A stretch of 63,266 nucleotides of DNA, the filler included, from Atractiella rhizophila (lineage: Eukaryota), in assembly GCA_021432655.1 (NCBI GenBank). It is 10 parts of 10 records of this genome, joined end to end, with 100 filler letters (N's around TTAATTAATTAA, not from the genome) between each part and the next. Parts side by side here need not be neighbours in the genome. Positions count along the whole stretch, not along the records: positions 33,110 to 37,133 come from MU272297.1; 9 more parts are not named here. The stretch is one strand, 5' to 3'. A program made the position numbers and the translations under genes. Positions 6,539 to 61,149 of this stretch are shown here, piece after piece (position 1 is the stretch's first letter; each line of letters begins with the position of its first letter). The notes under the pieces were generated by a model. It did no database searches. It was not told where the DNA came from and was given only the letters and a program-made list of their open reading frames with translations.

Positions 6539-6638
6539 NNNNNNNNNNNNNNNNNNNNNNNNNNNNNNNNNNNNNNNNNNNNTTAATTAATTAANNNNNN
6601 NNNNNNNNNNNNNNNNNNNNNNNNNNNNNNNNNNNNNN
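6539..6638. other. Artificial scaffold-joining linker (44 N + TTAATTAATTAA + 44 N)
   Basis: Identical 100-nt spacer with stops in all six frames. It recurs at 13176, 19807, 26422, 33010, 37134, 43707, 50260 and 56769. Confidence 0.97.
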
Positions 6639-9773: not shown

Positions 9774-11521
9774 TCACACATTGGATAGGATCCGAAGGGA
9801 ATCGTTCCTCATGCGCTCTCTTGGGTTGGCGTTATCCAGAAGACGTCCATTGGAGAAGGATGGCTGCAGTCGTACAGTTTTCAACACTCGAAGATTCGCA
9901 TCGCCCAGGATCCAAGGGTGTTGACAAGCTTCTGTAACGCTCATCCGCTCATCTACCCTTGGTCTGCATAGCCCATAGAGGAAGTCGTAACCTGTACATC
10001 ACTTTAACACTATGCAGCAATGTATCAATGAGATCTGTCGTACATTCAGGAGAAGTACCCTCCGGCAAATCGTTCCACTTGAAAACACGCCTTTTAAGAC
10101 GCGTGACAAGAGGTATTTCCGAGTTTTCGCCGTCGAAAGGAATTGTATTGATCATGCAGTAGAAGATGATGAGGCCTAGAGCCCATGCATCACATTTATC
10201 GGTAAACGGACCGAATTCGTTCGCTATGACCTCAGGAGCCAACCTTTACAGATCCATTATCAGCAACGAGTTCGAAAAGGGCAGCAAGGAGAGGTGTACC
10301 AAGTCGTCCTCAACTCGCTTTCCTGAATCATGTTGGCTAAGCTAAAATCTGCAATCTTTACGACAGGGTTTATTTCATGAGTAATGAGAATGCTAGCTGG
10401 CTTGAGATCCCGGTGAACAATCCTTTTGGCGTGAAAGACAGCGATTGCTGGGAAGAGCATCTTAGCAATCTGTCTCGCCTCTTCCTCTAATAAACCTCCG
10501 CGTATTGAGACGTAACTGAGGAGGTCTCCACCATTGATGTATTCAAGGACCACACAAAGGTCATTATCGTCGTCAAAGCATTCGATAAGCTTGACGACGT
10601 TTGGATGGTTAATCTCGTTTAGGATCGCCATCTCTTTTTCAATCATTCCCTTGTTCGTTTCAGACTTTAGTCTCGACTTCCTGATATGCTTCACGGCTCG
10701 TAACGTGCTCGTCCCACGCTCGATCACGCGACATACCTCCCCAGAAGAATCCCTGCCACAATGAAAGTAAATATGAGACGACATGGCAAGAAAGATAGCT
10801 GCGGACATTCTGAGTGCCTCAATGAAATCATACTTCCTCCAAATACCTCCGCAGAATGCCAAAGGATCCTGAGGGAGAGGTTTATTCGGGTCTTGCCAAA
10901 GAAAACCTACATCGCAGGTAGTCAATACCTGCAGTGGTGGGAAAGAAAGGAGGCCCACAATATCCTGTCGAGTGACTTCCGAGTTTAATCTATGGACTCA
11001 TCAGCAAAAACGTCATCGACACAATATTAACAATCACCGTGTCCCCGTGCATGAGTATTGTACTAATTCCTCTCCCGACTTTCTGCTCCCTTACATACGT
11101 TCCATTCGACGACGTATCCTTCAACCAAACTTCCCCATTGAGATCTATCCAAATCGCGCAATGAAAATTAGAAAGAATCGTCGCGTCCAAGCAAACGTAA
11201 TTTTTTCTTGCGCGTCCAATAGTAAGTGTTACTCCTGGAGGCTGGCTGAAAGGGATGGGGCGGCTGCAAAGGGAAGGGCAGGTGGGCAGCATTCTATCCG
11301 CCGTATCGCAAGCACCGCATGAACAAAGTAAGCTACTTGGAGAATTGAGCAGGAATGAGACGCACACCCCCCAAAACCCTATTAATGCCTTCCGATGTTA
11401 GCTGTCTGTTGCGTTAAGCGAAGCAAGGGAGAAAAAACGGACCTGGAGGTAAAGGCTTCAAATAGCCTGCATCATCACCTCTCTGTGTCGCCTGCTGAGT
11501 TAGCTCAGCCTCTTCTTGCAT
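9774..11521 (-). CDS. Rad53/Chk2-like SCD-FHA-kinase protein with degenerate catalytic motifs (probable pseudokinase)
   Basis: N-terminal MQEEAELTQQATQ (TQ cluster); FHA LTIGR...SNFHC...DTSSNGTYV; kinase RAVKHI, HPNVVKL, VLEYINGGDL, HRDLKPAS, KIADFSLA, APEVI, DKCDAWALG, RMSVTEACQHPWI. GT-AG introns join the exons. Confidence 0.8.
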
Positions 11522-12084
11522 CAAGGTATTAGTCACTCCTCGTGGAGAGAGGGAAACAATCAATCTGATAAGGCAAGTTTGGGTGAGAGGATGCAGAACT
11601 ATTCGCTGTATTCGCGCTACAGTCGCTGAGCGAGTAAAATGTGGTAAAGGGATGGAAGAAACCGTAGTTGTAGCAATTCTATGCGTCGTCTGCTTGTTTA
11701 TTGGTGAATCCCAGCTCTTTTAAAGGGAAGCGGAATAAGCACGGCAAGCCAAAGAATCTTTGTGCTCGTTGAGTGAACGACTGCCGATGAAGTGAACGCC
11801 GAAATCCGCTCTATTTGGTTCCTTTCCATTTCATGGACACTTCGATTCATATTAACAGCGCGTCACTGAATGGACGGGCGATAAGATTTGTCATAATCGA
11901 TTCTGTCATAGTTGCGAAACAAGCGGCCGATATTGCACACGCCGAAATCCGAAGAGATTTTCGCGATTTGCAAGCACTTGCATTGTAATCTCTACAAAGA
12001 AAGTAGAAGAGAAGGGGTTATGAAGAAGAATGGTTGTTTTTGTCGAGGAAGAAGTCTATGATTGGGAAACAGTATCACGCATGC

Positions 12085-14022: not shown

Positions 14023-16198
14023 ATGCAGCACCCAGAAATTCTATCCCCGCAACCATCAAAAATGCCTTTCCTCCCTTCTCATCTCTCCAGGACTCATACT
14101 CCCATGGTCCACTATGAAGAGGATAGCTCCCACTACGATCAGTGAGCTCTACTTGTTCTCTCAACACCATCCTGACATGCTGATGATCTCGATCACAGTC
14201 ATGGACCAGATGCTGCCTATACCCTTCTGGGGAAGGATCTCAAGCTCTTCTCTGATGCTGGGTTCGACATGGAGAAGATTCATCTGAAACGCAATGCTCC
14301 TGTCGCCCAGTTATATGAAGATGCGATCAAATACGAAGGAGCCGTCATCTCATCCAGCGGAGCCCTGATCAACTTCAGCGGAAAGAAGACGGGTAGGAGC
14401 CCTAAAGATAAACGAATTGTCTATGAGGAGACGTCGAAGGATGACATATGGGTCCGTCTTTCCTTTGCATGATTGTAGGGGCTTGCGGTTTATGGTCCTT
14501 CCATGGTATGCAGTGGGGATCTGTTAACATCAAGATGGACGAGCACACTTTCGAAATCAACAGAGAAAGGGCCATCGATTATTTGAACACGCGAGACAAT
14601 GTCTATGTCTTCGACGGATTCGCAGGCGTAAGCTTCTATTCCTCCAACCCTAGCGCACTGTGCTAAATGATTATCCTAGTGGGAGCCAGCTTATCGGATC
14701 AAAGTCAGAGTTATCTGCGCTAGGGCATATCACGCTCTCTTCATGCACAACAGTGCGTTCGCATGTCCCGCTGTGATCTCCAACTGACGACGAGAGTGTA
14801 GTGTTGATTCGCCCGACTGAGGATGAGCTGAAGAACTTCGGCGAGCCTGACTTCACCATCTACAACGCTGGACAGTTCCCCGCCAACCGTTTCACCGCCG
14901 GCATGACCTCCACTACTTCCGTCGAGATCAACTTTAAGCGAAAGGAAATGGTCATTCTCGGCACTGAATATGCTGGAGAGATGAAAAAGGGCGTCTTTTC
15001 CGTGATGGTATGTCTTCCTATACTTCTGTTGCGGAGAGAGACTGACGAAAGCCATAGCACTATCTCCAACCCGTTAAGTTTGGCCAGCTTTCTCTTCACT
15101 CTTCTGCCAACGAAGCGAAAGAGGGCGGCAACGTTACCCTCTTCTTTGGACTTTCCGGAACCGGGAAGACGACTTTGTCCGCTGATCAGAACCGAGCGCT
15201 CATTGGAGATGATGAACATGTCTGGTCCGACAAGGGCGTCTTTAACATTGAAGGAGGATGCTATGCCAAGACTATTGGTTTGTCGAAAGAAAAAGAGCCA
15301 GAGATCTTCAGCGCCATCCGATTCGGTTCTATTCTCGAGAACGTCGTTTATGATCCCGCAACCCGAATTGCCGATTATGATCTCGACACCATCACTGAAA
15401 ATACTCGCTGGTGAGCTTTTACCGTCCCTTGTCAGAAGGCATCGAGCTAACGAAACGACAGCGCTTATCCCATCGAGTTCATTCCCAACGCTAAGATTCC
15501 TTGCTTGACCAGCCATCCTCCTACCAACGTCGTCTACGTAAGTCACTGTTCCTTTCGCAGGTTCCGATCAGTTCGCTGACATCTTTTCAGTTGACCTGCG
15601 ATGCTTATGGTATCCTTCCTCCCGTCAGCAAATTGACTCGCGAACAAGCCCAATACTGGTTCATTCTTGGATACACCTCCAAGACTCCCGGAACGGAGGA
15701 TGGAGTCGTCGAACCCTCTCCCACCTTTTCGACCTGCTTCGGTCAACCCTTCATCGTTCTTCATCCTTCGCGCTACGCGACCATGTTGGCTGAGAGGATG
15801 GACGAGACCAAGGCTAACGTCTGGCTCATCAACACCGGTTGGGTCGGTGGCAAGTTCGGACAAGGGAAGCGATGCCCTCTCAAGTACACCAGGAAGATCA
15901 TCGACGCCATTCATGACGGTACTCTCGCCAAGGGAGAGTTCGAGACCTTCCCCATTTTCGACCTCGCCATCCCCAAGAGCCTTGAGAACGTCCCTGATGA
16001 ACTCCTCGACCCTAAGAAGGCTTGGAAGGATTCGGAGAAGTTCGAGGCTGAGCGAACCAAACTCGCCAACATGTTCACTGATGGTGGGTCTCCTTTCTCA
16101 AATGTATCCACACACTAACATGAGTTTGTGACATAGCTTTCAAGAAATATGCTTCTGACTGCTCCCCTGAGGTTTGCGCTGCCGGACCTAAGTTTTAA
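14023..16198 (+). CDS. PCK1: Phosphoenolpyruvate carboxykinase (ATP)
   Basis: [100 protein letters not shown]; ends AAGPKF*. Confidence 0.97.
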
Positions 16199-19906: not shown

Positions 19907-20446
19907 ACTTCCACAGCACCCGCTCCCTCGCCCTCCCTCGTCCGATTCGCCTCCAGCGTGCTCTCCCTCCTCCGCTCCTGGTCCGCACTCACCCTCGTCC
20001 TCTCCCACAACCCCACCACAGGCTGCACCGTCGAATCCTTCGCCGAAGAGATCGTCTCCCTCTTCCTCTCCGAAGAGACCATCCCGTCCCAAGAAGCGGT
20101 CGAGGATTTCGTGCTCGCGTATTTCGATGAGGACCTTTCGACGAGTTTGGAGGATGGGTCTGAGGTCGGGGTTGCGAGGGATTTGAGGATGTTGTGGACG
20201 GAGAGTCTTGCGGAGGGCGAGGGGGAGATGATGCGGAGGGTGAGGGAGGTGGAGGGGAGGATGAAGGGGAAGAAGGTCGAGGTGAAGGTGGATGAAGATG
20301 AGGAGGTTAGTGGGAGTGACAGTGAGGAGGAGAGCGGAGAGGACGATGTGCAGATGGATGTTATGGAACCTTCTACTAAGGGAAGAACAAAACCTGAGCC
20401 TGTTGTCGATGAGGACGGTTTTACGTTGGTTCAGAAGAAACGGTGA
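19907..20446 (+). CDS. TSR2: Pre-rRNA-processing protein Tsr2, 5' truncated
   Basis: FASSVLSLLRSWSALTL, VEDFVLAYFDEDLSTSLEDGS, an acidic tail, and the C-terminal PVVDEDGFTLVQKKR typical of Tsr2. Confidence 0.85.
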   Translation, partial: TSTAPAPSPSLVRFASSVLSLLRSWSALTLVLSHNPTTGCTVESFAEEIVSLFLSEETIPSQEAVEDFVLAYFDEDLSTSLEDGSEVGVARDLRMLWTESLAEGEGEMMRRVREVEGRMKGKKVEVKVDEDEEVSGSDSEEESGEDDVQMDVMEPSTKGRTKPEPVVDEDGFTLVQKKR

Positions 20447-20857
20447 TGGTGAGCTTTTTATTGTTTGTTTGGGATCCAGTGTATTCATACAAATCAAGTG
20501 TAAAATGTGTCTCTCCTGCTTCCAGACGGTCTCGATCTCGTGCAACAAAATGCTCCTTTCCATACTACATCAACGCGTCAACAAGCATCGATCGTAACAT
20601 GCAAAAAGTAGAAATTCAGATCTGTGACGTCATATGTCGTTGTGTCCAGCGTTCTGTTTTCGGTTTCTTCTCCATTTCCATTTAAATGCTGCCCTGCTCT
20701 ACCTACTATCGATATAATATCCTTGGAAGGAGCATCCCAGCAAGCATCCCATATCCAACAAGCAAGGGCATCGGCCAATCCTCGCTCCCGCGCCGACTGA
20801 ACTCGTATATAACAAAGCTGAACTTGAATCTGATACCAAGAGCTTGAGACGATCAAC

Positions 20858-26521: not shown

Positions 26522-26917
26522 GGCGGAAGTTGGACGAGTTGAGCTGAAGAATCCACAGTGTTGACCTTCCGTTAGGTCAAACAGCACTGGAGGAGGAACG
26601 TAGGTTGGATTGATCACATGATGACTGTTAGCAGATGCGTTAGAGCTCGAGGGGACCGCAGGATGGTTTGGGATGCTGGGGCATTGATATTCCGCCAAAG
26701 GTTGTTGCAGGTCTTGATTCCATGATTCGCCCACTGGGACTGGCTTAGCGTTAACCAGATCGAGCGGAGGATGAGGCTTGTTATAAAGTGTAAATTGCGC
26801 GCTGGACAAGGTAGAAGTTGGAGTGTGAAAGGGATGTGGTGGGACCAGCTCTTCAAAGTTTACCAACGCACGATCAAAGGATGGGCGTGGCCAGTTGTTG
26901 AGGTGAGAATCTCCCAT
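26522..26917 (-). CDS. Hypothetical P/H-rich protein N-terminus, truncated by the scaffold end; likely paralog of the 30530 gene
   Basis: Open frame MGDSHLNNW...PSIPNHPAVP...HHVINPTYVPPPV running into the gap. Confidence 0.45.
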
Positions 26918-27118
26918 GTTGGTCGAAATGAAGGGTCCCCAAAACGTTGAGCTGAAGTGCAATAAACACCATCAGAGGAAAAGATCCTGAGCAATCCCCT
27001 TTTATAAAAATCCTTTCGGGAGGAGAGCAGAACAAGGTGTCGAGGCGCTCGGGTGCTGAAATCGGAAGTTGAGATTCTGTATGAGAAAGGCGGGTTGGAC
27101 CACCCAATATACTTGCAT

Positions 27119-27210
27119 TTACCTTTCGTACGAGAGCATTACCTTTCGTACGAGGGAGTGGTCTGGATCACGTAAACAGTTTTGTCTGAGAAGCTTTCGT
27201 ACGAGAGGGA
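27119..27210. repeat. Three copies of CTTTCGTACGAG (palindromic core TCGTACGA)
   Basis: TTACCTTTCGTACGAG at 27119 and 27139 (20-bp period); third copy GCTTTCGTACGAG at ~27193. Confidence 0.7.
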
Positions 27211-29337
27211 GAACCTTGTCAGATCAGGTAACCATATTTGCGGCTCATCCCCTCTGACTGAAGGGACCTGCATCTGTTTCTTGTGATCGCTCTCGATGAG
27301 AACTTTTCCCTCCTGCTTGGTTCTGTTACGAAACACACTCAGAAGATGAAAATACGGCACGGTATCAGTGCACACACGGCTCCGCTGGCGGAGATGAACC
27401 TCTGGCTCCGCTCCGCCAATGAAGATGAAAAGCAGAACAGAAATGCAATAGCTTGGTCCGTGATGTGATGAGAAATGCGACGGGGAGTTGTTCCGTGATT
27501 GAATTTCGACGATCATTCATAAGGTTTACAAAAAAGGTTAGTTTGAAATTCCTAATGTTCGCTATTTGCAATCAATAAGCGCGATCTTCTTCCCAATCAG
27601 TGAGCGCTCTTCTTCTCATCACTGTTTGGCGCTACTTTTCTATCGATTGAGCGTCCACATCTCTTTACAGAGTCCAACGGCCTCCTAGAACCTCATCTAA
27701 CTTGCCCTCTCTATCAGTTTCATAGTTCAAGAGTGCCACCTCTTCCACGCCGCCAAGGGCTCTCGTTCGCCACACCAAGGTGGCGAATTACTATTGGAAT
27801 AAAGCTGCCCTTTGCCTTCAGGCAAGCAGCCAGTGAATATGCGAAGTAACCCTCCAGATTTAACTTTGTAAAGGCCAACCAATTTGTGGAAGCTCTCAGA
27901 CCGGCAGCTGAAGCAGTTGAGTGTACACTAGAGAACGAAATAAAGATAACTTGCATGTCGGCGGAGGCACAACAAGATGCGTTACTCTGATTTAACCTCT
28001 CCACCCTCGCCGAAAACCCACCATCTGTCCCCCAATTATGCGTATTAAGACCTTCCATCAAGGACTGTAATCTAAGGTTCTATGGGTATGAGACTATAGA
28101 GCGATACAAGGGCATGAGGGGGATAAATTACGATTTACAAATCGATTGGATGGATCTAGGCAAATCCGAACACGGATGCTATTGCTCCAACGGTACTATT
28201 CACACGCGCTTTCCCTGACACAATAATCACTCACCAGTTCTTCCCAACGCTCTAAGGAAGTAAGAAAGTACCAACCTGGGACGGACGGAAGCCCATTGAG
28301 ACAGCAGAGACTAATACTGCTCGATAACACGTCTGTGCTACAGCGACTCCGTCTTCTTTTGGTGCTGAGCACAGTAATGCATCCACCTATGCCAACAAAG
28401 GAAAGCCCAATCTTGACTGGGATGTAACAGAAACCAAAGCCAGGCGTTGAAGAGCGGAGCGAGTTTCTTGACAATTTAGAAAAGTTGATGGATGCGAGGT
28501 TACGGGGCAAGAATCTCCTTATATAAAAAGCACGACGGGTTTGACCATGACTCACGCATGTACTTTTGAGCTCTTATATCACCGCCCACAACAACCCTGT
28601 CAGAATTCTGAGCATACCAACAGAATACGCGTGTCTGCGCCCTTCGAACCGTATACAGCAAAGCCTGTTTAGAGACGAAAAAAAAATTGTTTTCCTGACT
28701 GAGTCAGGTGACTTCTCACCGAGGGCTGCTCAGCTAGGAGAAAAGCCGCAGACGAGCATGTTTCATGGGGCCGATCTCATGGTTTGTTGGTGGCGTTGGT
28801 CCGCATCTTGCTTTGGGCAAAGCCAGCCAATTCCAGCCTTCCAGCCGATGCTGTACGTTCTGTATTTCCAGCATTAGCGGTCGTAAGCATTGAATTAGAT
28901 GGCATTGCACCTTATTGGATAAACACAAAAGGAATGAAGACAATGTGATGCTACTGAATGCTACGCAGATGATGTCCTGGCTGCTGGTGCAAGTGGATGA
29001 AACGACGATGATGTACTGTCAAAGCAATGACGAAGACAAACGAGGCACAACAAAGACTTCAAGCAGTGAAACCAAACAGGAGGAGTTAGGACCGAGGAAA
29101 TGAGAATCTATCTTTTGGAGACATGGACACTGAACGGAAACGATTAGACCACAGACAAGACAGATGACGAGGTTTAAAGTAGAGTCCTGTTTTTCATAGG
29201 GCACGGCACCATTCTGCATATTGAACCAAGTCGGGATGCGTCGTGTGCAGCGTGCAGCTTTCTTTGACCAGATGAGACCTACATCAATGCATAAGCAAGG
29301 AGAGGGAGACCTGAAGGTAGCAAACAAAGGCATTGAC

Positions 29338-30530
29338 TTACAAGATGACTGACGGTCGTTTCCCTTCAAACTTGAACGAGGGTTTGTGGGCACAGTCACC
29401 TATAAGCCAAATTCCACTGTTAATTTGAGAGGTGACGACAAACTGGTGAAGGGGCTTACCGATCCACTTCAATTGGCCTTTTAGGAAATCTACTCTGCAC
29501 GTCAGAAAAGGAAGCGGGAAACGCTTAAGCGTACTATTTCGCTCCCTCTGATTCCTAGCGGAAGGCAAACACTCCTTTCCGCAGCAAGTGACCCTCATAT
29601 ATGCCGGACTACTGAACATAACAGGGCCATCTAAGCCTTCTTCCCTTGGGCTACGACCAAGATCCAGAAGTTCTTGCAACATCCAAATCTTTTTCCCTTC
29701 CCTGTCGAAATAGAGAATGAGCGTTCGTGCAAGGGGAGTAGTCTTGAGCAGTTTCTGAGAAGTAGCTCCTATTTTATTTCCGCTTGAGCATAAGTATCAG
29801 CTGTGGAAGCATCGTACTGTCTACCCTGTGCCCATTGGTATAATCGATCACTTCACCTGCAACGGTGTTCTCATGTCCTATCCAAGGGTTAGCACTCGCA
29901 ACGCTCGCTGCAGCAGGAAAATCGATCAATCCCCATCTGAATCTGAAGTAATGGTATAAAGACTTACCCGGCGTCCCAAAGTTGACTTGGGCTGCATAAG
30001 AAGGAGAATCTCTGGCGATCCTCCGATAGTGTTCAGCGAGGGGTAGGACTGGCGGCGGATGGGAATAAACCAGGTTCTGGAAGTCTGTGGAAACGTGTCA
30101 TCTTTTCGACTGCACGGAAAGCGGAAAGCACAGCAGCGGACGCACTGGGTGCGGTGGGCATTAGATGCGTTGGTACATGATCTTGAGCATGTTGGGTCTC
30201 GAATGGCCCCACTGGGGGAGGAAGATAATAGGGATTAACAGGATGGTAGTTCCCATGAAGCGAAAATGAGGGCTCATAGGTGACAGGAACTGCAGGCACG
30301 TTTGGGAAGGACGGCGCTATCCATCTGTGATCGAAGGAAACATGGGAACTGTCATACGGATCCATATGAATCGACGAGTTCCACCAGGATCCAGCATTGG
30401 ACCTAGGAGGTGATGGAACCTGATGAGTCTGGTATGGATATGGTTGGACATGATGGTCATCTGCCGTCGCTCCTGCATTAAAGGACGCAGCATCTGTGGT
30501 CCAAGGAATATCGCCATGAAAATCTTCCAT
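29338..30530 (-). CDS. Hypothetical multi-exon protein (P/H/Y-rich first exon); may extend to ~27600
   Basis: ORF MEDFHGDIPW...PSFPNVPAVP...YHPVNPYYLPPPV, followed by a GTAAGT donor and further short open frames. Confidence 0.4.
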
Positions 30531-31644
30531 CCTCTCTTGCTCGGATTGAACACTTCTGCACGCAAAAAAACGAGCTGATGCGTAATAGCACCTGAGAAGC
30601 TCTTCCCTTCTGAGCCACTGCTAGGTTCCGTTGGAGCTGGGCCCTCAGGGTCCGGTCTGGCCAAATATCATCGTCGCCAAATAATCGTCATTCAAACATC
30701 TGTCTGTCGGGTCTGCATATATCCCCACCGTCCGTCCGCTCTGTCACATCTGTTTCTTATTCCTATCACGGCGGCATTTATCCACTCCATCAAAGAACAA
30801 GAAAAAGACGAAGAGTGTTTGCACACATAGAATGAAAGCCACAGGAGAGACGCAGGCTGCAAATTCCCAGAGAAGTATGATTGTCAATTTCAATTTGGTC
30901 CTGTGTGCTATAACGGACGTACGTTCGCCTTATGTCAGCGAAATCAAAGGACACCTGTCTGTCTATTCAACTGAAGAGGACCATTATGCCTGCTGAGCCA
31001 CAGCTTACATTGGCGAAAATTACACCACTCTTCCCATTGACTGGAAAAACAAGAAAATACTCACCATTGCAGAGCAGGCCATACTCTCTCCCCTTTTCTC
31101 CCAAATTCCACCATCTCATGCCTTAAATAAAGTCATCGCCCCACTTCGATCATTCTAGCCAGCATTCTAGGATGATCAACGGAGGAGAGAGGCGGAAGGG
31201 GATGGAATGGGTGCAAAACAGTTAAAGATCGAAGGGAGCGATTTGGATAGGGGTGGCTTGAAACCAGATGCTACTACTCCACTACTATTCATCGACCTTC
31301 CCTTTTCTTGAGGTTTTCGAAAGACAAGCATACCAAGTCAAGACAGAGCGCCATTAAAACGGCATCTAGGATCGCTGCTCCATAACGTCTTCAAAGATGT
31401 GTCCATCCTGCCACTCGGAAGGATGTCTGCTCTGCTATCAGTGGCGAGATCACTGTTGCACCCATCAGATAGAGGCAACATTATTAAAGGGCGAAACATA
31501 CCAAAAGCATAGAAGAGTTTCCCAAAGCCAGATATAGATGATAAGAGGCTACGGGTTGAGCCGTTATTATTAAGCCTGAAGGGATGGCGGGGGACGACAA
31601 CGAATAAGGCCATTTATAACACAATCCTCCGAGCAAGCAGAATC

Positions 31645-31743
31645 TATTGCACCTGTCAACGTTTCCCGCAAGATGAAGGTACTGTATTGCACCTGTCAAT
31701 GTTTCCCGCAAGATGAAGGTACTGTATTGCACCTGTCAATGTT
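31645..31743. repeat. 40-bp tandem repeat, ~2.5 copies
   Basis: TATTGCACCTGTCAA(C/T)GTTTCCCGCAAGATGAAGGTACTG starting at 31645, 31685 and 31725 (partial). Confidence 0.9.
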
Positions 31744-32550
31744 GTACGATTCGGAAACCCGTCGTCGAAGTTCGCCAAACTTCAACAGACCCTTCAGCCT
31801 CCAATTGTTGACTGGTTTAAATGGCAGAAACTCTGTCAACCTGGTTATCTCGAACAGCTGTCAATGTTCGTGGCTGTTTGGACTTAATTTTTTTTTAAAG
31901 TTTTGCCTTCCTTGCATGGTCACAATGCCCAAAGTGCTCAACAGACAGACAAACAAACCTTGACAGGTAGCAAATGATTGGTGTGCCTCCAGATCCATAT
32001 TACATCTATGCCCTGCTCCATGGCCTCCATTACAGTAACTTTGTGGCCGTACGGCTCAGCCCCTTAGTTCCATGTCAGTTTGTCAAAATGTATGGGCCGC
32101 CAGTGCCCTGCCCTCGTCTCGACACTCCATAGACCGCTGCAACAAATATCAAGTGCGTTGGCCTTCCAAAACCTGCATTGTCACAATATGGAGGGCAGTA
32201 ATGTTGAGATCAGAGACGTAGTGCCACACCAAATTACTTATGCATTTACGATCTCACATGCTGGTACGGACCACAAGCACACATGTGCTCCTGTCTGCAG
32301 GTGGAACAATGCACGGGAAGGGGAAAGAACACCTGACTCTGACTCTCGAAACCCGGCACTTCGAAGAAGCCTGGCATGTCACCACCTACAATTTCAATGC
32401 ATCTTTCGAACAAACAGCGTTGCAATTCGCATGTTCTCATGGATATGGTGAGGATATGGTGAGGGAAAGTGAGACTGGGGGTGGGATAGATAAATTACGA
32501 TTACATGTCGTATGGAACGGATGTAGACAAATCGAATCAAGACGAATGCT

Positions 32551-32973
32551 TTAAAGCCGGATGCTGCTGCTCCTCTGGTACCTCCTATTCACTCCCGCCT
32601 TTCCCGACACAATCAATCATTCCTCTGCTCTTCCCAATGCAGAAAGAAAGTAAGAGAGTACGAACCTGGCATGCACAGAACCCCATCAAGACAGCATACA
32701 CCACCGCTGCTCCATAACACGTCTTCGCGACAGCATGTCCGTCTGGCGGTGACTCTTCAGAGTCGAGTAATACATCCGCCTACGCCAACAAAGCCCAGGT
32801 CACTGAGACAGAAACCAAAGGGAGGCGCCGAAGAGAAGAGGGGAGAGAGTGAAACATACCCCATTGTCGAAAGCGAGCCCAATGAAAACAAAGAAGAGGA
32901 TGCCAAATATGGAGAATATGGAGTAGCAAGATGCGAGGCCGCCAGGTACAAGTGGTTTGATTTGAATCGCCAT
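32551..32973 (-). CDS. RNASEK: V-ATPase subunit f / RNase kappa-like small two-TM protein, 3 exons
   Basis: Spliced: MAIQIKPLVPGGLASCYSIFSIFGILFFVFIGLAFDNG|ADVLLDSEESPPDGHAVAKTCYGAAVVYAVLMGFCACQ|AGVNRRYQRSSSIRL*. Two hydrophobic helices and the DG.AVA..CYGA.VVY pattern of this family. Confidence 0.8.
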
Positions 32974-33109
32974 GCTGCAGGTTCGGAAACGTTTGAGACT
33001 GAGAAGGAGNNNNNNNNNNNNNNNNNNNNNNNNNNNNNNNNNNNNNNNNNNNNTTAATTAATTAANNNNNNNNNNNNNNNNNNNNNNNNNNNNNNNNNNN
33101 NNNNNNNNN

Positions 33110-34429
33110 AGTTCCTTGTGGGGACTGGGCATTGGGATGCCGCGGCTTATGGAGTAAAGAGGGTCAACCACGAGGGCATAGCTACGGTGTTGTTCAGCTA
33201 GGCCGAATGTAAGTCAGTGGAGAACAAGGCGTTGTTCCCTACTCTGGACATCGTGGAGACGGATCAGCACGCTTGCATAGGGTCCTAGGGGTTATAGAAG
33301 TCATGAAGGGTGTCCGCCGTCCAGGGCAGTCTAACCGTCGCGGGGTCATGGTTGTTATAGGAGGAGAACACCGCTGAGGCTTAGTCTAAGCTATACACGT
33401 TTGCCTCGTCCCTGAGCAAGGACATTGTAACAATCGCGTTGGGCCTCCTAGCGTTCTCATAGTGGTAGGAGTTAACTACGTGAGTGTCGTACAGCCGCAC
33501 GGACGACGGGTTGGAACCTAACCCGGAGTTCTAGCGGCAAAGAGTTTGCCTATACGTTATGGAGTCGTATCATGGAGTCGAGGACCTATGAGTTTACCTC
33601 ACTGGCAGCGTTAAGGGGTCCAAGGGTACTAACCAATGGGAGGGCGCAGGTGCCCCTGCTACCGCGTTAGAAATGGAGTCGGAGGAGTTGCGGGCGGAGT
33701 GTACGTTGTTTTTGGAGGCTGAGGTTTTTGGAGACTACCTTCGTTTCTTGCACCTCTTCTTTTAGTGCTTTTTAAGCGGACGTCGAGGAGGCCGAGTTAG
33801 AGTTGGACACTACCGCGGTAGTCGTCTTGTACAACAGCCCGTAGTTAGGGTAGCAAGGGCAGTACCTAGGTTCGTACAAACAGAGCGTTTTGGGACCGAG
33901 TAGGAGGCGTCAACCTAACCGACGATTTGTAGGAGGTAGCAAGGGAGGAGGAGTGTACTGCTACGGCGGAGTCGTACAGCATGTTTGCTACTCTCGCAGT
34001 GGAGAAGACCGGTTCTCTAGCATAGTGCGCTACCTTCCGCGTGGCTACGGGTGACAGTTGGGTTTCCTTGACGGCTGGGGATAAGGGTACAAGCTAGGGA
34101 CGGTAACCTGTAGCCGGCGGTACGTACCGGGAAGAGGGCGGAGGTGTCGTTGGTAGGAGTGGGGAGTACGATTGGGTAGCGAGGAGGTGTGATGGGGAGG
34201 TCTTCAAAGAAGTCTGAGCAGTTGGGGGCGAAGGAGCGAGAGCTTACCAGGCAGAGGAGTGTTGGGTGAACGAACACGTTATGGAAGCCAGTCAGGCGGT
34301 CCCCGGAAGGGAAGCTACTGCCACCTTGTCTACAGAGTCGACTCCTTCGCATTCTACCCTCTCTACGTCCTGCATCCTTGTAACTTACTGTTACCCTAGT
34401 TCTTTAGTGCAGACCCGTACTTGTGTACT
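33110..34429 (+). CDS. Cryptic gene 3' part, visible only after complementing: P/Q/S-rich protein with basic C-terminal NLS-like motifs
   Basis: Complement translates QGTPLTRNPTAPNTSFLPVGAPVSMPQQVDPAYIQSPLVPQQ...MSQLRKRKMGEMQDVGTLNDNGIKKSRLGMNT*, with two apparent single-base frameshifts near 33730 and 33840. Confidence 0.75.
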
Positions 34430-34994
34430 TGTTAGCAGCGTAACTTATAAGACCTAAAAGAACCTATTTTTCCTAGTCTAGCAAATTACTAAGGATTACA
34501 AACAGAATAGCAAGCTAACTTATCCTCAACACGGTACACTCTTACGCAACACTGCTTATTGACCAAATCGAACAAAAAGTCTAAGCGTACAGCAGGAAAA
34601 ATATATAACGAATACTAAAGCTAAAGCTCCTTTCTTCACAGGGCTGCACCAAAGAAGTAGCAGTTATCGAAGTAATAACATCGTTATTGTAGGAGTTTTA
34701 CTATGTATGTAGGAACCTCTCATAGATCCTTCTTTTGGCTAGGAAATCCCGCTCTAACATGAGTCTTATTTAAATCTTCCCCTTTTCCCGCACTTTGAAC
34801 TGTATTGTTCTTTATTACTGTTAATTTGTTCCGACCTCGTCAAGGCTGCTAGGTAGCTACGAGATGTTAAGGACTGAGAGGAGGTGACAGACGAGGTTTC
34901 AGAGAAGCACAAGGGGCAGAACGAGGACTCTGAGCAGAGGGAGAGGGAAAGGTTGGTAAAGGGTCTCGAAGCCGACCCCAAACTGGAGCTATAG
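33110..34994. other. Block complemented in place (not reversed); hides the 3' parts of two convergent genes
   Basis: The base-by-base complement read left to right gives long P/Q-rich coding sequence ending at TGA 34427-34429. Reading the given strand backwards from 34994 continues ORF 34989-35498 in frame. Confidence 0.9.
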
Positions 34995-36700
34995 CGGCTT
35001 CCCAAGTCCAACCCTATTGAACTGCGTCCGAGCTGATAAGTTCTGGTCCTCAAGCTTCTTCTTCCTCCGCCGCCGAGAGAACGAACGGACACCGGGTTGA
35101 GTCTTGAGTCGTGGTGTAGGAAGTCCTTGCGACATAGCTTGCTGCATGGGTACCTGAGAAGGCATGACGGGAGCAGAGAGGGCATGAGACAAAGGAGCGA
35201 GCGACGGTTGAGTCGACGCCTTCGACATCCAAGTCGGGAGCTGGTCGGCATGAGCGTTGGGGGCGGGACGAAGCGGAGTAGGCACTGCCTGAGCTCGCGG
35301 ATCTGTCTGGAACTGACTTGGTGGTCGCATAAGAGGTGTTGGAATAGCATGCTGAGCACCGTTTTGGGTAGCTTTCGAAGACGTAGGTGCGTAAGAGGTC
35401 CTCGCCAAGAAAGGCGAAGAAGACGGTAGTTGATTAGATGAACTAATCGCAGGAAGGCCATGGAGTTGCATCGAACCTGTTGGGAATACGATCAACAAAA
35501 AAATTTGAGTTGGAACTCCAAGACTTTACCGTTTAGCTGCTGCAAACCATATCCTCCGTATGGCATTCCAGCTGCATTCGGAACAGGAGATGCGGTTTTC
35601 AACCCCTGACCTTGTCCTGCATAAGGCGTTCATCAGCACAACACAAGTCACGGGGCGAAGTAGCTCGTCCTACCATAACCCATGTTCTGATTGTGGATGT
35701 TGGGCACTCCCTGAGCCCCATAGTTCATTTGAAGATTTCCATTCGGGTTTATATTGAATTGAGGGACAGGCGTCATCCCTATTCTCGGCTGCGGGTAAGT
35801 TGCCGGAGGTCCTTGAGATCCTAATCAACGTCTGTGAGCTGGTTCTCTGGGTGCGGAGGTTGTGACCAACCTCCTCCATTAGCTCCTGTCCCATTTCCAT
35901 ACCCTAACATGCCATTCGCAACGGTCGGAGCTTCAGACCCTTGAACTGGAGCCTGAGGGAATTGGCATTTTTGCCCCGGGTGACCTTCCCGTTCACCGTC
36001 AACGCTTGAACAGGGAATGAAAAGGAGACGAACCGGATGTGTCCTTGGTACTTTGAATGGGGACGAGACCCATAAAACCGCTCGCCTTCGCCGACACTGT
36101 CGAAGTTGACGTCGGCTGTACGGATTGTTGTCCTTGTCCCACGGCGGTTTTCGGGGTAGGCGGTTTGAAGTTGAAGAGATTTTCATCCTCAGCCGATTTT
36201 TCGTTGGTAGTACCACTACTCTGAATAGAGCTGAATAAGGCCAAAAAGTCCTCATTGCTCATACTTCCGGGTCCCGCGACGGCGGGCAAGGATGACAGAG
36301 CGGGAACGGGGTCCGAAGTTGTCGATGTCGATGCACCGAAATTGGAGAGGTCAAGGTCGAAGAGATTGAAGTTTCCGGCGTTGTCTTTGAGGGAAAGAAA
36401 GATGTTCTCAGACCCACGAACTCGTTGACGTATGACACAAACGGCGACTCACCCGTGCCCAGATTGTCCAAGTTGGATAAAAAATCATCTCCAAAGTTCT
36501 GTGGCAGGGACGGGAGTGCAATGTTGTTTCCTGTAGCGACATTCGACAGGCCATCCTGATTTCCTGGATCTGGAAACAGCTCTGCAGAGAGCTGCGCGAA
36601 AATACTGTTTGTGGTCACTACGGGCCCTTGGCTAGGGAATAAGGGGCGTACTGTTCGACATCCAACTTTTCCTCCATCTATGCGATATGCTGCTGGGCGT
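34863..36700 (-). CDS. Low-complexity (S/Q/P/N) multi-exon protein of unknown function; C-terminus lies in the complemented block
   Basis: Exons ...PSLPQNFGDDFLSNLDNL, FNLFDLDLSNFG, MSNEDFLALFS, PMQQAMSQ...RRRRKKK...VGLGKP, then in the corrected sequence DIEVKPQPKLWEMV...EESQEL*. 5' end uncertain. Confidence 0.55.
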
Positions 36701-37423
36701 GGGAGTGGGTCAGTGCAATGCTGGGCAGGGAATATGGCAGCAGGGGAATGGATTTGGTTGAAATTGGAACCAACGAAATGGACGGAGTCGATCTGAACCT
36801 TGCGGCAATTCCTCATCAAGCAGGACAAAGAAACTTTAAAAAATTCGATCTTGCACGTCGAACCCACAACTCACCTCACTTGAACTCGTCTATTACTACC
36901 GTAAAGGACTTGCTAAGAGGTGTTTGGACAAGAGAAAGTGGGTTGAGCAACTGCTATGCGCGAGGAAATGTAGGATGACCAACGCAGATATAGCTGGGAG
37001 GAAGTGCGAAGAAGCGAAATCAGATGCGGTTGTACTGACAGGTGTGTGTCCTATCAATTTTGTCTTTATTATACTGGTGTGGCTTCCGCTGGTTCATTGC
37101 TACACCAACGCATACCATCCCAGAGCGAGCAGANNNNNNNNNNNNNNNNNNNNNNNNNNNNNNNNNNNNNNNNNNNNTTAATTAATTAANNNNNNNNNNN
37201 NNNNNNNNNNNNNNNNNNNNNNNNNNNNNNNNNCCAAAAGTATATAGGCAGGAAGAAGAGGTCCCCCGTTACCTCGACTCCCTCACCATTACACCTAGTC
37301 CTTCGAACTTCAGAAACCACGGTACCCAGTGGCCACGGTATCATCGTTTCACGTCGCTTGGCCCTTTCCATCGCAGCCTACAAGGATTCACTTTCACTCC
37401 TTGCCGTCCGTCCCCGCTTCTCG

Positions 37424-43972: not shown

Positions 43973-45010
43973 TTAAGCATAAACAAATTGGAAACTGTAC
44001 TAACCAATCAGCATTCCCATCCTCCTTCTCACGACAAGAGAATGACGAACCTATAAGTCTTCGTATCCAAATCCCAATGACTCCAACTCTTTCCTTCCGT
44101 AGCATCGATCTCTTTGGCCTGTATCCTGAAAGATATCGTTTGGTAGGGTTCAGCTGCAATCTGCTCCCAAAATATTATCACCACTTCAGCTGTAGCTTAC
44201 TGGTTTTAAGGAAGGTAACGACGTACAAGGACGTATTGCCAGTCCTTATTAGGTGCCTCGACATGTTGCTCGAAAGAAGACATGAAACGGTGTCGCGGTT
44301 TCACGCCTTCCTTGATTTGGGGATAATGGACCTGAAACAAGAGTCCCAACTGACCAGTGATGGGGTCTCGAACCTTGGTAACCTATACCAACCAACCATC
44401 AACAAGGAGGCTGTAGGTCGGGAGGCACCCACTCTATATCCAGGGCTTCCAATCTTGATAAAGCTCTTCAAAGGCGTTTTGTTAGCCTGTACAACGGCCG
44501 CCTGGTGCGCTGCCAGCTGAGCCTGGTAAAGGGACGAGTCCTTCGCATCTTTCGCCGCTCGTCGTGCGAGGTTCGTCTGGTGCTTTTTACCCTGAGTGTG
44601 CGCGAGGTAGGACCCTTCGTTGGTGTGCAGGGTGAGACAGAGACGGCATTCGAGTCCCCCAAGGTGGTTGCGGAGGATGTAGGGGTCCTGAAATCATCAC
44701 CACAGGATGCGTTAGGTTACTTCGTGCTGTAGGTGTGGGAGAAGAGGAGGAAAGGACGGGCTTTGGCTAAGTCAATGGTTTCTAGAGCAAGCTTTCGTAG
44801 TCGCTCCCGACGGTCTACGTTCGTTTCTGAAGCCCCTGCCACACCTCCACCACCAAATTTCGAGCCGACACGATTCTAATTTCGGTCATCCAGTCGCGAA
44901 TGAGCTTCCGGCAGAGCACGAAAAGACTGGATAAGCCACGCACCTGGAAATCTATTTGCATTTCACAACGCTCAGCAGAGAGCAACAGTAGAGAGGGAGA
45001 GCTTACCCAT
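43973..45010 (-). CDS. SF3A2: Splicing factor 3A subunit 2 (SAP62/Prp11)
   Basis: Spliced: MDFQNRVGSKFGGGGVAG...RRERLRKLALETIDLAKDPYILRNHLGGLECRLCLTLHTNEGSYLAHTQGKKHQTNLARRAA, FIKIGSPGY, PRHRFMSSFEQ, AAEPYQTISF, WSHWDLDTKTYSFQF. Confidence 0.95.
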
Positions 45011-46422
45011 GGTACGATATCGTCACGGCTTGAGCTCTCTCAAAGGCAAACAGAGGGAAATGTCCGTCGGGTCTGGAAGTTTTTCAAGGCAGTCACATTA
45101 AGTGTCTGTCTCCGGCAATGTAGTAGGACGACTTACCCTGTTATTACGTGTAACAAATTGAGTGCTCGAATTCGATGGCGTTAATGCCGTCGCCCTCTGA
45201 ACTTGCAGTGCCGGAACCGATGCAATAAGACAAGGAACTTTGCAAACCTTATTCGCCACCCCTTGAAATACAACACGTTGAAGGACGGTTAGGCTACACT
45301 GGGGAAGCTCTGGTGGGAGCGAGGTAGAATATGCAGAGTTTGTGATGGAATATAATCGAATTTCTACTGATTAGGAGGTGCGCCGGACTCATTCCACCAT
45401 TGCTGTTGCGAAATATAGAGCCTGTTTGGATCGCGATACCTGCTCTCTTGTTTCTCAGTATATATGCAGGAACAGTTTACTTATTCTTGTGATGTTTTAA
45501 GATACATGTACTTTCTCTGTCATGGGCTACCAAACAATATGAGCTCATATCTCGCGGTCTTCGCGAGACGTTCATTGACTTCTTTAAGTCAGCTGCAGGG
45601 AACATAAGATGTCCCTCTCCTAGCTTACCTCTATTTTCAGGCGAAAAGAGAGCGCGACGCATCATTACATGAGGGACAACGGCTGCCTCAGTGGCCCTTG
45701 CAAATTCACTCAGCACATCAGTTCTCAGTTGCTGCCGAATGTCTTCATCTTCTTTCTTGTTATATGATATCTCTATCTTTACTATTAGGAAAGTCATGGA
45801 AGGTTGTATTAGCCAGATTAGACGAAGAAATGTAGCCTTGCTGGAATCCTTTCTCCCGTTCTTCACTCGCGGATTGATGAATAAGTTGCCTTTCCTTCTT
45901 GGCAGCACGCATTTCATGCTGAAGCAGCAAATGAAGTTCAGTTTGACTGAAGGATATGTCTCCTAAGCTGGTACGGAAAGGGCCACGGAAACTTCCTGAT
46001 TTCCCGGGAGTATTCCCAAAAAACCGTCTTCCCTCTTGCATCTCATGGTGCGATGTTCTAGTTTTTTCTTACCCATCCTGTGCCTCATGCATCTTGTATT
46101 CTCTGCCCCCCCTCAGACAAAAATGTCGTACTCGCCAAGCATCTGTCCCCCCTTCGGAACTCTCCGTTTATGATTGCTCATGTCAGGCTCCACTTACTCT
46201 CGGGGCGATATTATCCATTTCCGCCTCAAATCCCTTTTGGCCAGCGCGATGGTCCGGTATAGACGCTCCTTCCTAACCCGACTTACTTCGTAGCGGGGGA
46301 GAGGGAAGGAGATATTTGGTCTTGCTGCAATTGCCGGGCTGACCTATAAAATGAGTTAGGCCTTCGATGGTCCCTCAACCAGCAATTCAAGTCGGTTCCA
46401 TCATCTACAATTCTTATTGAAA

Positions 46423-50210: not shown

Positions 50211-50359
50211 GACGTTTCGTTCTAACGGTTGTAGCCGTTTATGAAGTCTGCTGAATTGANNNNNNNNNNNNNNNNNNNNNNNNNNNNNNNNNNNNNNNNN
50301 NNNTTAATTAATTAANNNNNNNNNNNNNNNNNNNNNNNNNNNNNNNNNNNNNNNNNNNN

Positions 50360-53300
50360 GTACCAAAGCGGACGGTGGATACTGCCATCGAGCAGCTTAT
50401 CAACCATGTTCTGGGTCCGACCGAGGATTCGATACCCGCCATCTATACGATAGAAGGCTCTCAAATTGTCCCTCCAACCAGTATTCATCCCCCCGCACGA
50501 TATGGCAGTCTAGACGACTGGTCCTTTTCCACGGCTGAGTCTTACAAAGCTGTTTCAGAGGAATCAGAAAACGCGAACGAGACTGTCCAGCTCAGCGACC
50601 AGGAGGTAGAGAGTCTGGCGGCGGAGCTCAAGTCGTGGGCATTGGAGCAGCACGAGAACACTGTTCAGCATCTTGTTTTGAAAGCGAAGCAGGACGCCGT
50701 ACTTTTGGCGGCCAAGACGGCCGTTCAGAAGGATGTGGTGGAAGCGGTCGGAATCGCAGTGAAGAACGATCCGGAGAAGGCGCACCAGATCCAGCCTGGT
50801 GTGGTGGCTACCAACCTGACGCAGAAAATGGACCTTTCTGGTTACTCAGAACGGTTCAAGGTGCAGCTTGAGAACCTCGCATCAGGATATTACGCGACTT
50901 TACATAAGGAGATAGTGAGGAAGCTGGAGCAAGAACAAACTGGCTCAAGCTCAACAATGACGGAGGACTCGAAACAAATCCAAGCTAGTGCCGTCGCTGC
51001 GCTCACCGCTACTCTCGTAGCTGCTACAGATGTGCAGAAAAGGGCGAGTCTTGCATTGCACCAAATGGGAATTCCGCCTACTGCCGTCGCCTCCACCCTT
51101 CCCACCACCATCCCCCCTCAACCATCCGGATCGGCTTACACACCATCTCCACCCCAACCTGCACAGCAGAGGGTTCAACCCCCGCCTCCCAAACCGGACA
51201 TCCCGGCTGAGCAGTCGATGAGAGCGGTACTAGAGACGGTACAGAAGGAGGGCAGGTGTACGGAAAAGACGAGAGACTATTTGTTGAGCGCCGCCCATGT
51301 CTTGTATATCAGGGCCCCAAAAGACGACTACTTGCTTGGACTTCTTCACACTGTCACAGATTTGCATCCAACGCATCTCCCGAGTCTGTTGCTCCTTAGT
51401 TGTGTGTATTACTCGAGAGGCGATTTGGTTGGATCTGTGGCGCAGAATGCAAAGATATTGGAAATTGACCCAAATTATGTAAGCTTTTTGGTCCTCTTCT
51501 GTCGACAGACTCTCACCGAAAGGCGGTTAGGTGGAGGCGATGAGCAACTTAGGAACGACTTATCGTGCAATGGGGAGGACAGCTGAAGCGGAGACGTGGT
51601 GGAGACGAGCGGTTGGAATACGTCCTTCATATTTCGACGCTTTCGACAACCTCTTGGGCGTTCTCTGCAACCCCAATCCTCAGAAACCTCAAGAGGGCCC
51701 TCGCTACCGCGAGGCCTTAGAACTCTGTGAGCAGGTGGAACGTGGGATATACGTGAACGGCTTTGATGATACCAACGGGCAAATACCCCTGAGACCTCTC
51801 GTACTCCCAAGCTTTATACCCATCGATCACGTCCACCGACTGCAGAACCTTTTCTACGCTAAAGGCAACCTTCAATCGGCTCTTGGCAACCCTTTGGCTG
51901 CTCAAGACGAATACATTAAGGCTGTTGAGATTGCGCTCTCAACTCCAGTTCGACGACTATCTGAAGTCACCTCCCGTCCAAACATCAAGGATCTTATTCT
52001 CGGATCGACAGCTCTGGGATTTGTGCTGATGCGTGGAATTCAGGGAATGGATTGGAAGTCAAAGCAGGAGTTTGGGACTCAATCAGTTCATACTGCCCTG
52101 GACCTCCTAGGCGTAAAAGAGTACATACTTAGGCAAGGGCAGGCGGGGCAAAACCCAACCTTTCTCAAAGCAGCCGAACAATTTTCTTCCAGTCTCTACA
52201 CTCGATTGCACCAGTTAGGAAACGGGAATCTGCCTACCATTCTCCTACCTCCTCAGGTGCTCGATCGATTTGTCAAGATGCTCTTCGGCGGGTGTCTTCC
52301 TGTTCTTCTAGGTCTCAATAATCCCTCAGTTCCCCCAGAAACGAGGGCACAGACCATGGCTTCCGTCAATTCGACCACGAGTACCATTCTGCTCACTCTA
52401 GCCAAACTCTTCCAAGACGCCAGCACGTCTCCAAATGGCCCCATGGCACAGGCTATACGAGCTTCTGGATTCCAACCATCCGTACCTCTTCTCCTTTCTA
52501 TTTTCTACAGCGCCATCTCCATACATGATTCCCCTTCGACTGCCAATAATCTTGGGATCCTCCTATCTACCATCCCTTCTCAACCTCAGCCTGGTCAGAT
52601 CCCCGGCACTCCTGCTCCTAGTGGTCAGGCTCTCGCTCTCGAATTTTACCGATTTGGTCTTTCAAAAGACCCCAACCATCCACATCTCTATACTAATTAC
52701 GGATCGCTTCTCAAGGACATGGGTCACATTGCTCTTGCAGTGGAGGAATACAAGAAAGCAGTAGCATGTCAGCCGAACTTTGCGGTGGCTTTGGCAAATC
52801 TAGCTAATGCCATCAAGGACATGGGGCGTGTTCAAGAGAGCATCGAATATTATCGGCGAGCTGTTGAAATTGAACCGAACTTCCCGGAGGCAGTCTGCGG
52901 ACTGGTGAACGCTTTAGGAGGGGTCTGTGATTGGAATGGGAGAGGAAGTGTTGGAGATGATCCCGTTGTAACTGAAGACGGGAAACTGTTACCTGTCCCC
53001 ATGCCCGATGCGAATGGCAAGTACCCAGCGAGTGGTTGGATGGGTCGGATCGTTACACTAGTTGATCGTCAGTTAGAGGAAGGGAAGAAGTTTGGAAGGG
53101 GAATCTTGAAGGCAAATAACAACCTAGAATATTGGATGGATTTCGTCGCATGGATCATGACAGGAGAACGGAAGTCTGCTGCGCTCGGCAGGCATGAGGA
53201 GATCTGGAAGAAGAGTCTACAAGTCTTTCTCAATGGCGGGCTGCACCCGTACAATGAAGGAGGCTTCCTAGTTCGTCTAGTTGAGTTAGGGATGCGACGA

Positions 53301-55171
53301 ACGCAACATCGCTGGTACCGAGACTCTTATGGGAAAGCCCTCAATGCTTTTCCAGGAATGCAACTCAACAACGATACAACTGCGTACCAACGACCTACTC
53401 TTCCCTCCAATCTGCCAGGTCCAGCAGTTCCAACCGTCCTCCCTTTTCACACATTCACATATCCCCTCTCCGCAAGACAGGTGCGCCTAATATCACACCG
53501 AAACGCGCTCAAAATTTCGTATTCCACTCTCATGCAACCTTGGATGCCACGAACAGTTTTTCCACCACCCCCACCTCCCACGAAGCTCAACATAGGTTAT
53601 GTCAGTTCCGACCTCAACAATCATCCCCTCGCACACCTCATGCAATCTGTTTTCGGTTTCCACGATCAATCTCGGTTCAACGTTTTCTGTTATGCCACTA
53701 CCCCTTCTGACAACTCCCCTTACCGTATTAAGATCGAGCGTGAAGTTCCACGATTCTTGGACGTGTCAACTTGGAGCACAGATCAAATTGTGAATCGTAT
53801 CGCTCAGGATGGAATACATATTCTGATTAATTTAGTCTGTCAATCACATGTCCTTCTCCGTGTGCTGACTGGAGTCGCAGAATGGTTATACGAAAGGAGC
53901 ACGAAATGAGGTGTTTGCAGCACGGCCAGCTCCGCTTCAGATGGAGTTTAGTATGTAGTTCTTCGACCAAAGTGTTCTGAGACTCACTGTAGTTATTTAG
54001 TGGGATTTGCTGGACCTCTTAGCGGCGGTTGGTGCGATTATGTAGTCGCTGACGCAATAGTGTGCCCGCCTGAAACGGCGGCTGCAGAGGAATGGAGGCG
54101 GCGAAAGGATCAAGGAATTCCTGAATCCCCTGCTGACCTCCCAGGCGACATCGACCCCGAGGAAGCCTCAGACAGCTGGGTCTACAATGAGAAGTTCATC
54201 TACATGCCGGACTCATATTTTGTCTGCGATCATGCACACAGTTCTCGTGACGCTTTGTCAACTCTTCCTCCAGACCAGCGGTGGTCTGTCGAAGAAGATC
54301 TGCGATGGAGAAAACGCAGAGAGTTGTTCCCCGGTCTGAGGGACGATGTGGTCATCTTTGCCAACTTTAATCAGCTCTACAAGGTGATCTGCTTGATCAT
54401 TCTCCGAAATCGAAGCTGAACTCTCCTTAGATCGACCCTGCAATATTTCAGTCCTGGCTGAAGATTTTGCGAGATGTTCCAAATTCTATCCTCTGGCTGC
54501 TGCGATTTCCTGCTGCTGGGGAACCACATCTCCTTCAAACGGCTTCTTTGTGGGCAGGTTTGGAAGTTGCCAGCCGGATACGATTCACCGACGTGACGAG
54601 TAAAGACGAGCATATTGCGCGCGGTAGAGTTGTCGACCTTTTCCTTGATACAACCGAGTGCAACGCTCACACTACCGCTTGCGAGTGAGTTTTACGATTT
54701 CAACTTTCTGTACTTGTACTTACAAAATTCAACAGCATTTTGTGGTCGGGCACACCCATGATAACCTATCCTCGTCGGGAGTGGAAGATGTGCTCAAGAG
54801 TCGCCGCGAGCATTGTCAGCGCCACAGGTTACGGTTCACAAATGACTGTGTACAGCTTCGAGGAGTACGAGCGACGAGCGGTAGCCTTAGCATCATCTCT
54901 CCGATACCAATATACATCAGAAATAATGGACGGCCTCGTCGTCAGCCATCGTCGAGGGCAAGGCGAGCTGATCGAACTTCGAAAGAATCTCTTCTTGTCT
55001 CGAGAGACGTCTCCTTTATTCGACACTCGAAGGTGGACCCGAAATCTGGAGAAAGGGTACATTGCTGCTTGGAAGCGATGGGTTGATGGGACGGAATTTG
55101 AAGAAAGTCCAGATTGGGAGAACGAGACTGAAATCGGTCGAAGTGGTTCGATTTGGATCCAGAATAATTAA
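50360..55171 (+). CDS. OGT: TPR-containing O-GlcNAc transferase-like protein (GT41), 5' truncated
   Basis: TPRs (EAMSNLGTTYR, HLYTNYGSLLKDMG, ALANLANAIKDMG). Catalytic motifs IGYVSSDLNNHPLAHLMQS, NGYTKGARNEVFAARPAP, FANFNQLYKIDP, DLFLDTTECNAHTT..DILWSGTPMIT. Confidence 0.92.
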
Positions 55172-58774: not shown

Positions 58775-58799
58775 NNNNNNNNNNNNNNNNNNNNNNNNN

Positions 58800-61018: not shown

Positions 61019-61149
61019 GTTATCAAATCAAGTTCCAAGGAGTGGGAACGGGAGATAATAGACATCACACTATCTCCCTTACTTCTTCAGAACTACAGAT
61101 GGGTTCTTTTAGCGTGTCAACTGACTTTTCCGGGCCAGCGGCCATTTAA

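Follow-up and report, generated by a model that had tools for sequence, protein, structure and literature searches.

Mirror-written sequence blocks beside scaffold gaps in the genome assembly of Atractiella rhizophila

The window analysed here, a stretch of 63,266 nt of the Atractiella rhizophila assembly GCA_021432655.1 that consists of small scaffolds joined by 100-base spacers, contains two kilobase-sized blocks in which the true + strand is written backwards without having been complemented. The original prediction concerned only the first of them; a second one lies in the same window and many more are scattered over the assembly, next to gaps of N. These mirror blocks are almost certainly the product of an assembly-software error, a fault of the data and no feature of the organism. 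They hide the ends of genes, among them those of a cohesin subunit and of a WD40 protein.

Polarity and edges of the two blocks

The genome (G000; contigs and scaffolds are numbered C) comprises 51.5 Mb in 1998 contigs and is intron-containing. The assembly holds two haplotypes that are ~98% alike, and for most unique stretches the allele is found elsewhere in it. Positions 33110-37133 of the window are MU272297.1 (G000:C1118:2456-6479). Polarity was scored with a cross-validated Markov model that compares the sequence as given with its complement under three penalties, and 67 overlapping control windows served as ORF controls. The elements that frame the blocks are as follows.

33010-33109, no strand assigned: spacer of 100 bases; in C1118 a 1326-N gap stands here, preceded by 1129 bases outside the window
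33110-35118, no strand assigned: mirror block 1, of 2009 bp; the true + strand in reverse order and uncomplemented, a one-sided extension into the scaffold gap
58775-58799, no strand assigned: gap of 25 N that precedes mirror block 2; the allele has ~33 bases there
58800-61000, no strand assigned: mirror block 2, 2201 bp, on scaffold C1122; same geometry as block 1

For block 1, the model preferred the complement at 33140-35140 under all three penalties. When the genome was searched with 33110-37133, the allele (C291:40919-42939) covered 35119-37133 only, and 33110-35118 as given matched nothing in the genome besides itself; with no as-given match elsewhere, a true inversion was rejected. The complement of the block matches the allele at C291:42941-44957 with 97.7% identity. 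Because this match starts at C291:42941, directly after the match of the flank, the left end of the block truly adjoins position 35119. Reversing 33110-35118 in place results in a single 4042-column alignment to the second haplotype (97.9%), whereas complementing either 33110-34994 or 33110-35118 in place leaves two pieces in opposite orientations relative to the allele. Block 1 is the true + strand backwards or, equivalently, the true - strand complemented without reversal. The earlier wording, a block complemented without reversal, holds relative to the opposite strand only; its repair, a complement of 33110-34994 in place, fails to make the sequence collinear with the allele, and the right edge that had been set at 34994/34995 lies at 35118/35119, as seen both in the alignment to the allele and in the contigs of sequencing runs.

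Four of 24 public runs, chosen by the largest share of words, were compared as Logan contigs, not as raw reads; they represent at most three samples, because X1 and X2 come from one sample, possibly the one that was assembled. Contig depth was zero in all 14 bins of 33110-34999 in each of the four runs. In all four, a contig begins at 35119 and carries an identical set of 30 loose letters, which agree with the allele at 30/30 positions and with the reversed left end of block 1 at 27/30; they do not fit the continuation that had been predicted. The sequence as given is without support from the contigs of the 4/4 runs (at most 3 samples), in line with the expectation expressed at the outset.

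A complement in place, which might arise, for example, if lower-case filled bases were reversed without complementing while a whole scaffold was flipped, would leave the contig-adjacent base where it was and would let the minus-strand ORF at 34989-35498 end in a peptide beginning DIEVKP. Such an event is suggested by the protein encoded in the complement and by the backwards read from 34994, which is in frame with that ORF. It nevertheless yields the two opposed pieces described above, the loose ends at 35119 fit the left end of block 1 and not the right one, the DIEVKP peptide belongs to the C-terminus of Rad21/Rec8 (see below), and the contig-adjacent base was found at the gap edge in 7/7 checked scaffolds. 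It would survive only if the exact mirrored segment had in addition undergone a real inversion, seven times over, and we consider it very improbable. A bug confined to the reverse-complementing of lower-case letters is rejected on the same ground, since it predicts a complement in place.

Block 2 repeats the arrangement: the complement was preferred at 58808-61022 under all three penalties, it matches C216:40782-42980 with 98.7% identity, and reversing 58800-61000 gives a single 6408-column alignment to C216 (98.0%). In both blocks of the window the match of the complement extends 6-7 bases beyond the junction, with one mismatch. We take this overlap as chance because two further mirrored scaffolds, C955 and C900, show none; the exact edge that falls one base short and the 6-7-base mirror overlap were accordingly dropped as clues to the mechanism.

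Together, mirrored bases make up 4210 of the 61,975 called bases of the window (6.8%). Weaker Markov calls in the window arise only at the two lower penalties. Several other candidates were rejected as blocks: the complement ORFs at 20038-20571 and 44550-45203, which other scaffolds match as given (95-97%); the complement ORF at 10965-11522, inside a repeat that matches other scaffolds as given at about 90%; and the weak Markov call at 9093-9519, where 9444-9732 matches other contigs at 84-85%. The 100-base spacers (starting at 6539, 13176, 19807, 26422, 33010, 37134, 43707, 50260 and 56769) carry an all-frame stop motif and separate distinct scaffolds of the genome, none lying within a scaffold; C1116 and C1118:1-2455, each with a gap of more than 1 kb of N, are absent from the window.

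Genes hidden by the blocks

Two gene ends had been proposed to be concealed in block 1 by a software error, and both are there, as the mirrored ends of a P/Q-rich gene and of a Rad21/Rec8 gene. Their pairing, however, has to be swapped, since the block needs a reversal and not a complement in place. The gene parts concerned are listed below.

33110-34429, no strand assigned: 3' part of the P/Q-rich gene; plain complement, read left to right, within an allelic stop-free frame of 574 codons
35119-36677, - strand: 5' portion of the P/Q-rich gene, written in normal polarity; ATG predicted at 36677, interrupted by six GT-AG introns
35477-35529, 35617-35673, 35821-35870, 35985-36033, 36385-36452 and 36605-36651, - strand: GT-AG introns of the P/Q-rich gene
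34863-35099, read backwards only: 3' end of the Rad21/Rec8 cohesin gene, including the DIEVKP peptide

As first noticed, block 1 is poor in ORFs, with no six-frame run of more than 128 codons; this poverty is less distinctive than it seemed, as 8 of the 67 control windows likewise have no longer run. The complement is more telling: none of the 67 overlapping control windows has a complement frame of at least 282 codons. Read from 33111 to the TGA at 34427-34429, the plain complement does encode the P/Q-rich protein over a span of ~440 codons, although the frame is broken near 33725 and again near 33817, each time by a one-base insertion not present in the allele. In the allele, a stop-free frame of 574 codons (C291:42533-44257, P0001) connects the P/Q-rich frame with the minus-strand ORF; the two belong to one gene of about 850 codons. 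The ORF was supposed to run on into the DIEVKP peptide; allele and run contigs join it to the P/Q-rich frame instead. At the end of the ORF, ~43 codons (34989-35118) result from misreading mirrored DNA, and at its start the ~8 codons from 35498 on fall inside the intron at 35477-35529. The six introns appear as joints in the contigs of X3 and X4, and the spliced frame stays open from the predicted ATG at 36677 to the junction at 35119.

Neither P0001 nor three of the 5' exons had a match in a search of Pfam, and a homologue search with P0001 over proteins 315-1005 residues long found none at E ≤0.001; in the atlas it met low-scoring, low-complexity look-alikes only (best 0.81). As a guess, the product might be a disordered regulatory protein.

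Reading the given strand backwards from 34994 does produce the 43-residue peptide that had been quoted, with its stop at 34863. It is the C-terminus of a convergent Rad21/Rec8 cohesin gene whose other part lies beyond the gap. On the allelic frame C291:44938-44690 the C-terminal domain PF04824 (Rad21_Rec8) was found with an E value of 4.3e-12 and 45.6 bits (cut-off 22.7), and the N-terminal domain PF04825 (Rad21_Rec8_N) at C291:47499-47038 with an E value of 1.5e-28 and 99.6 bits (cut-off 23.1); the latter region is mostly allelic to C1118:1-1129, the 1129 bases that lie outside the window. The upper limit of the mirrored 3' end, 35099, is that of the stop-free frame in the allele; the true start of the exon may lie lower by a few codons. 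With both domains above the Pfam cut-offs, the allele conforms to the Rad21/Rec8 kleisin family, whereas the gene in the record departs from it in being split by an N gap and in having its last exon mirrored. At position 34881, the acidic tail of Rad21 in block 1 lacks 12 bases relative to the allele, which is an in-frame difference of a repeat unit. When metagenomes were scanned with the Rad21 tail, 11 distant relatives turned up, with 40-57% identity across short segments; the junction could not be judged from any of them.

What block 2 conceals is the 5' portion of a WDR75/Utp17-like WD40 gene; the rest of the gene is found at about 56869-58774 on the - strand. Hits to the Pfam WDR75 propellers on allelic single exons had E values of 3.5e-10 and 7.4e-4; with 40.1 bits the first stays under its curated cut-off of 45, and with 18.8 bits the second stays under its cut-off of 27.

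Distribution over the assembly

Fifty-nine scaffolds of 6.8-10.4 kb were picked by number alone, six of them represented by 10,000 bases each; 36 are gap-free and 23 contain 26 gaps, and large scaffolds lie outside this random sample. A mirrored flank was found at 9 of the 26 gaps and 17 gaps were without one, while in the 36 scaffolds without gaps the only call was a weak one of 118 bases at an end. By a hand sum that excludes N, mirrored bases amount to about 17 kb of the 471 kb in these small scaffolds (~3.6%). Weakly negative polarity scores were also recorded to the right of a 395-N gap in C940 (L024:3906 onwards) and at the scaffold end in C957 (L072:8741-8858); both might be short mirror blocks and are left uncounted.

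The mirror geometry was verified against the allele in all seven scaffolds checked, namely C1118 and C1122 of the window and C955, C900, C1000, C1030 and C952 of the sample, with the mirror in place on one or the other side of the gap; in each of the seven the block touches a gap of N. Four further blocks of the sample (C1005, C1040, C1080 and C977) are called by Markov score only, as are two blocks to the right of 25-N gaps in larger scaffolds: one of ~2.5 kb in C216 (C216:52700-55207, L060:701-3208) and one of ~5.9 kb or more in C288 (C288:49880-55999, L088:3881-10000). Gaps of 25 or 26 N had a mirrored flank in 7/7 cases (four in the sample plus those of C1122, C216 and C288). Over all blocks seen, 11 lie to the right of a gap and 3 to the left.

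The block of C1000 includes a 369-base repeat (L041:2006-2374) that is absent from the allele. As given, it matches C288 and C121 at 95-98%; its complement matches ordinary copies, and the copy in C288 is itself mirrored (98%). Mirrored repeats thus match each other and produce a phantom repeat family.

The same match could be cited, together with the fact that the sequence stands in the record, for a real event in which reversed-polarity copying, by parallel-strand or mirror synthesis, rewrote kilobase segments of one haplotype. We regard this as exceedingly improbable. The match between C1000 and C288 is one of mirror to mirror, with both copies next to 25-N gaps, and blocks in general adjoin N gaps; depth over block 1 was zero in 4/4 runs; divergence has stayed at the level expected of alleles (10 substitutions/kb in blocks vs 14 in flanks); and the cohesin gene and the WDR75/Utp17-like gene would be destroyed. 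Polymerases and recombinases are well established to keep 5'-3' polarity.

Origin of the blocks and their consequences

The software error that we favour would occur in gap closing. At this step the end of a contig would be extended into the scaffold gap by a consensus of long reads, and the strand flip of the extension would be only half done, that is, the extension would be complemented without reversal or, which is the same, reversed without complementing. The true sequence would come to stand in reverse order, and the base that belongs at the contig would occupy the edge of the gap. Because short reads cannot map to mirrored DNA, polishing would leave errors of the consensus uncorrected, and annotation is unable to read the genes.

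The fills are one-sided extensions, because the contig-adjacent base sits at the gap edge and because the leftover N fit the remaining span of the allele (1326 vs 1338 in C1118, 25 vs 33 in C1122). In C1030, the two extensions span the same allelic 1.1 kb and were left unmerged. Extensions range from 0.4 to >5.9 kb in length. Relative to the allele, the blocks have 14 one-base insertions and no one-base deletion in 9671 bases, as compared with 5 and 5 in 12,594 bases of flanks (binomial p 0.0075 for the insertions). Errors of PacBio CLR reads lean to insertions, and the excess points to an unpolished flank extension by long reads; a long-read origin of the extensions is, in our opinion, very probable. 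Some points count against this reading: 17 of the 26 sampled gaps are without a mirrored flank, correctly placed extensions are indistinguishable from ordinary contig, and a strand-symmetric bug does not obviously predict the excess of blocks on the right side.

PBJelly may leave exactly 25 N in gaps that it has overfilled. From the pattern as a whole, this tool or a script built on it is somewhat more likely than not to be the source of the blocks. The likeness is found in one-sided extensions that shrink a gap, in the 25-N unit and in overlapping extensions that stay unmerged; according to passages of the PBJelly paper (English et al. 2012, PMC3504050), the program extends flanks so that a gap shrinks, recognises 'overfilled' gaps and defines a gap as at least 25 N. 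The polarity error differs from anything in those passages. Excerpts of four other papers (PMC6618069, PMC6191289, PMC7872254 and PMC8081667) mention PBJelly without such an error, and our search of the literature, which left most subscription journals and software forums outside its reach, found no report of a polarity error in PBJelly or in any other gap filler.

The same artefact may have had another origin, be it a gap filler for short reads, the merging of assemblies or a custom script; this explanation overlaps with the one preferred here. Its attraction is that the blocks, being ~98-99% identical to their alleles, are clean for low-coverage long reads, and the right-of-gap excess (11 vs 3) could indicate a bug of leftward extension. 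We still think it unlikely, in view of the 14 vs 0 one-base insertions and deletions, extensions that reach from 0.4 to >5.9 kb and the 25-N gaps, and the unmerged overlap in C1030 suits an overfilled gap as passages of PMC3504050 describe it.

Mirror blocks of this kind are to be distinguished from two familiar situations. They resemble an ordinary mis-oriented contig or inversion misassembly in that a segment disagrees with the allele and independent contigs break off there. A misassembled inversion, though, is a reverse complement, hence valid DNA that is found by BLAST and six-frame translation, whereas a mirror block is missed by both and cannot be polished by reads. Synthetic negative controls that are reversed but not complemented undergo the same string operation, which keeps composition and destroys coding and motif content; they seem to belong to designed regulatory assays and to involve no assembly fault.

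No new biology follows from these blocks, and their value is one of data quality control. BLAST, read mapping, polishing and gene finding cannot read mirrored bases, and genes appear cut short, as do those of the cohesin subunit, the WD40 protein and the P/Q-rich protein in this window. Any odd finding beside an N gap in this genome should first be checked for polarity. It is possible, though less likely than not, that some long-read gap filler in wide use has half-done reverse-complementing as a systematic and so far unreported fault. Were that so, kilobase mirror blocks would stand beside gaps in many public hybrid assemblies, genes would be lost from annotations, and phantom unique sequence and phantom repeat families would be introduced; a k-mer polarity score could then locate mirror blocks without reads.

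Some other features of the window were recorded. Scaffold C1127:1-6340 (L014) is redundant, its 6340 bases being 100% identical, on the opposite strand, to those of C1117 (window 26670-33009). By eye, from translation, we take 14777-16118 (+) to resemble a PEP carboxykinase, 50312-55171 (+) a TPR-containing O-GlcNAc transferase and 3819-4466 (-) a Nudix hydrolase.
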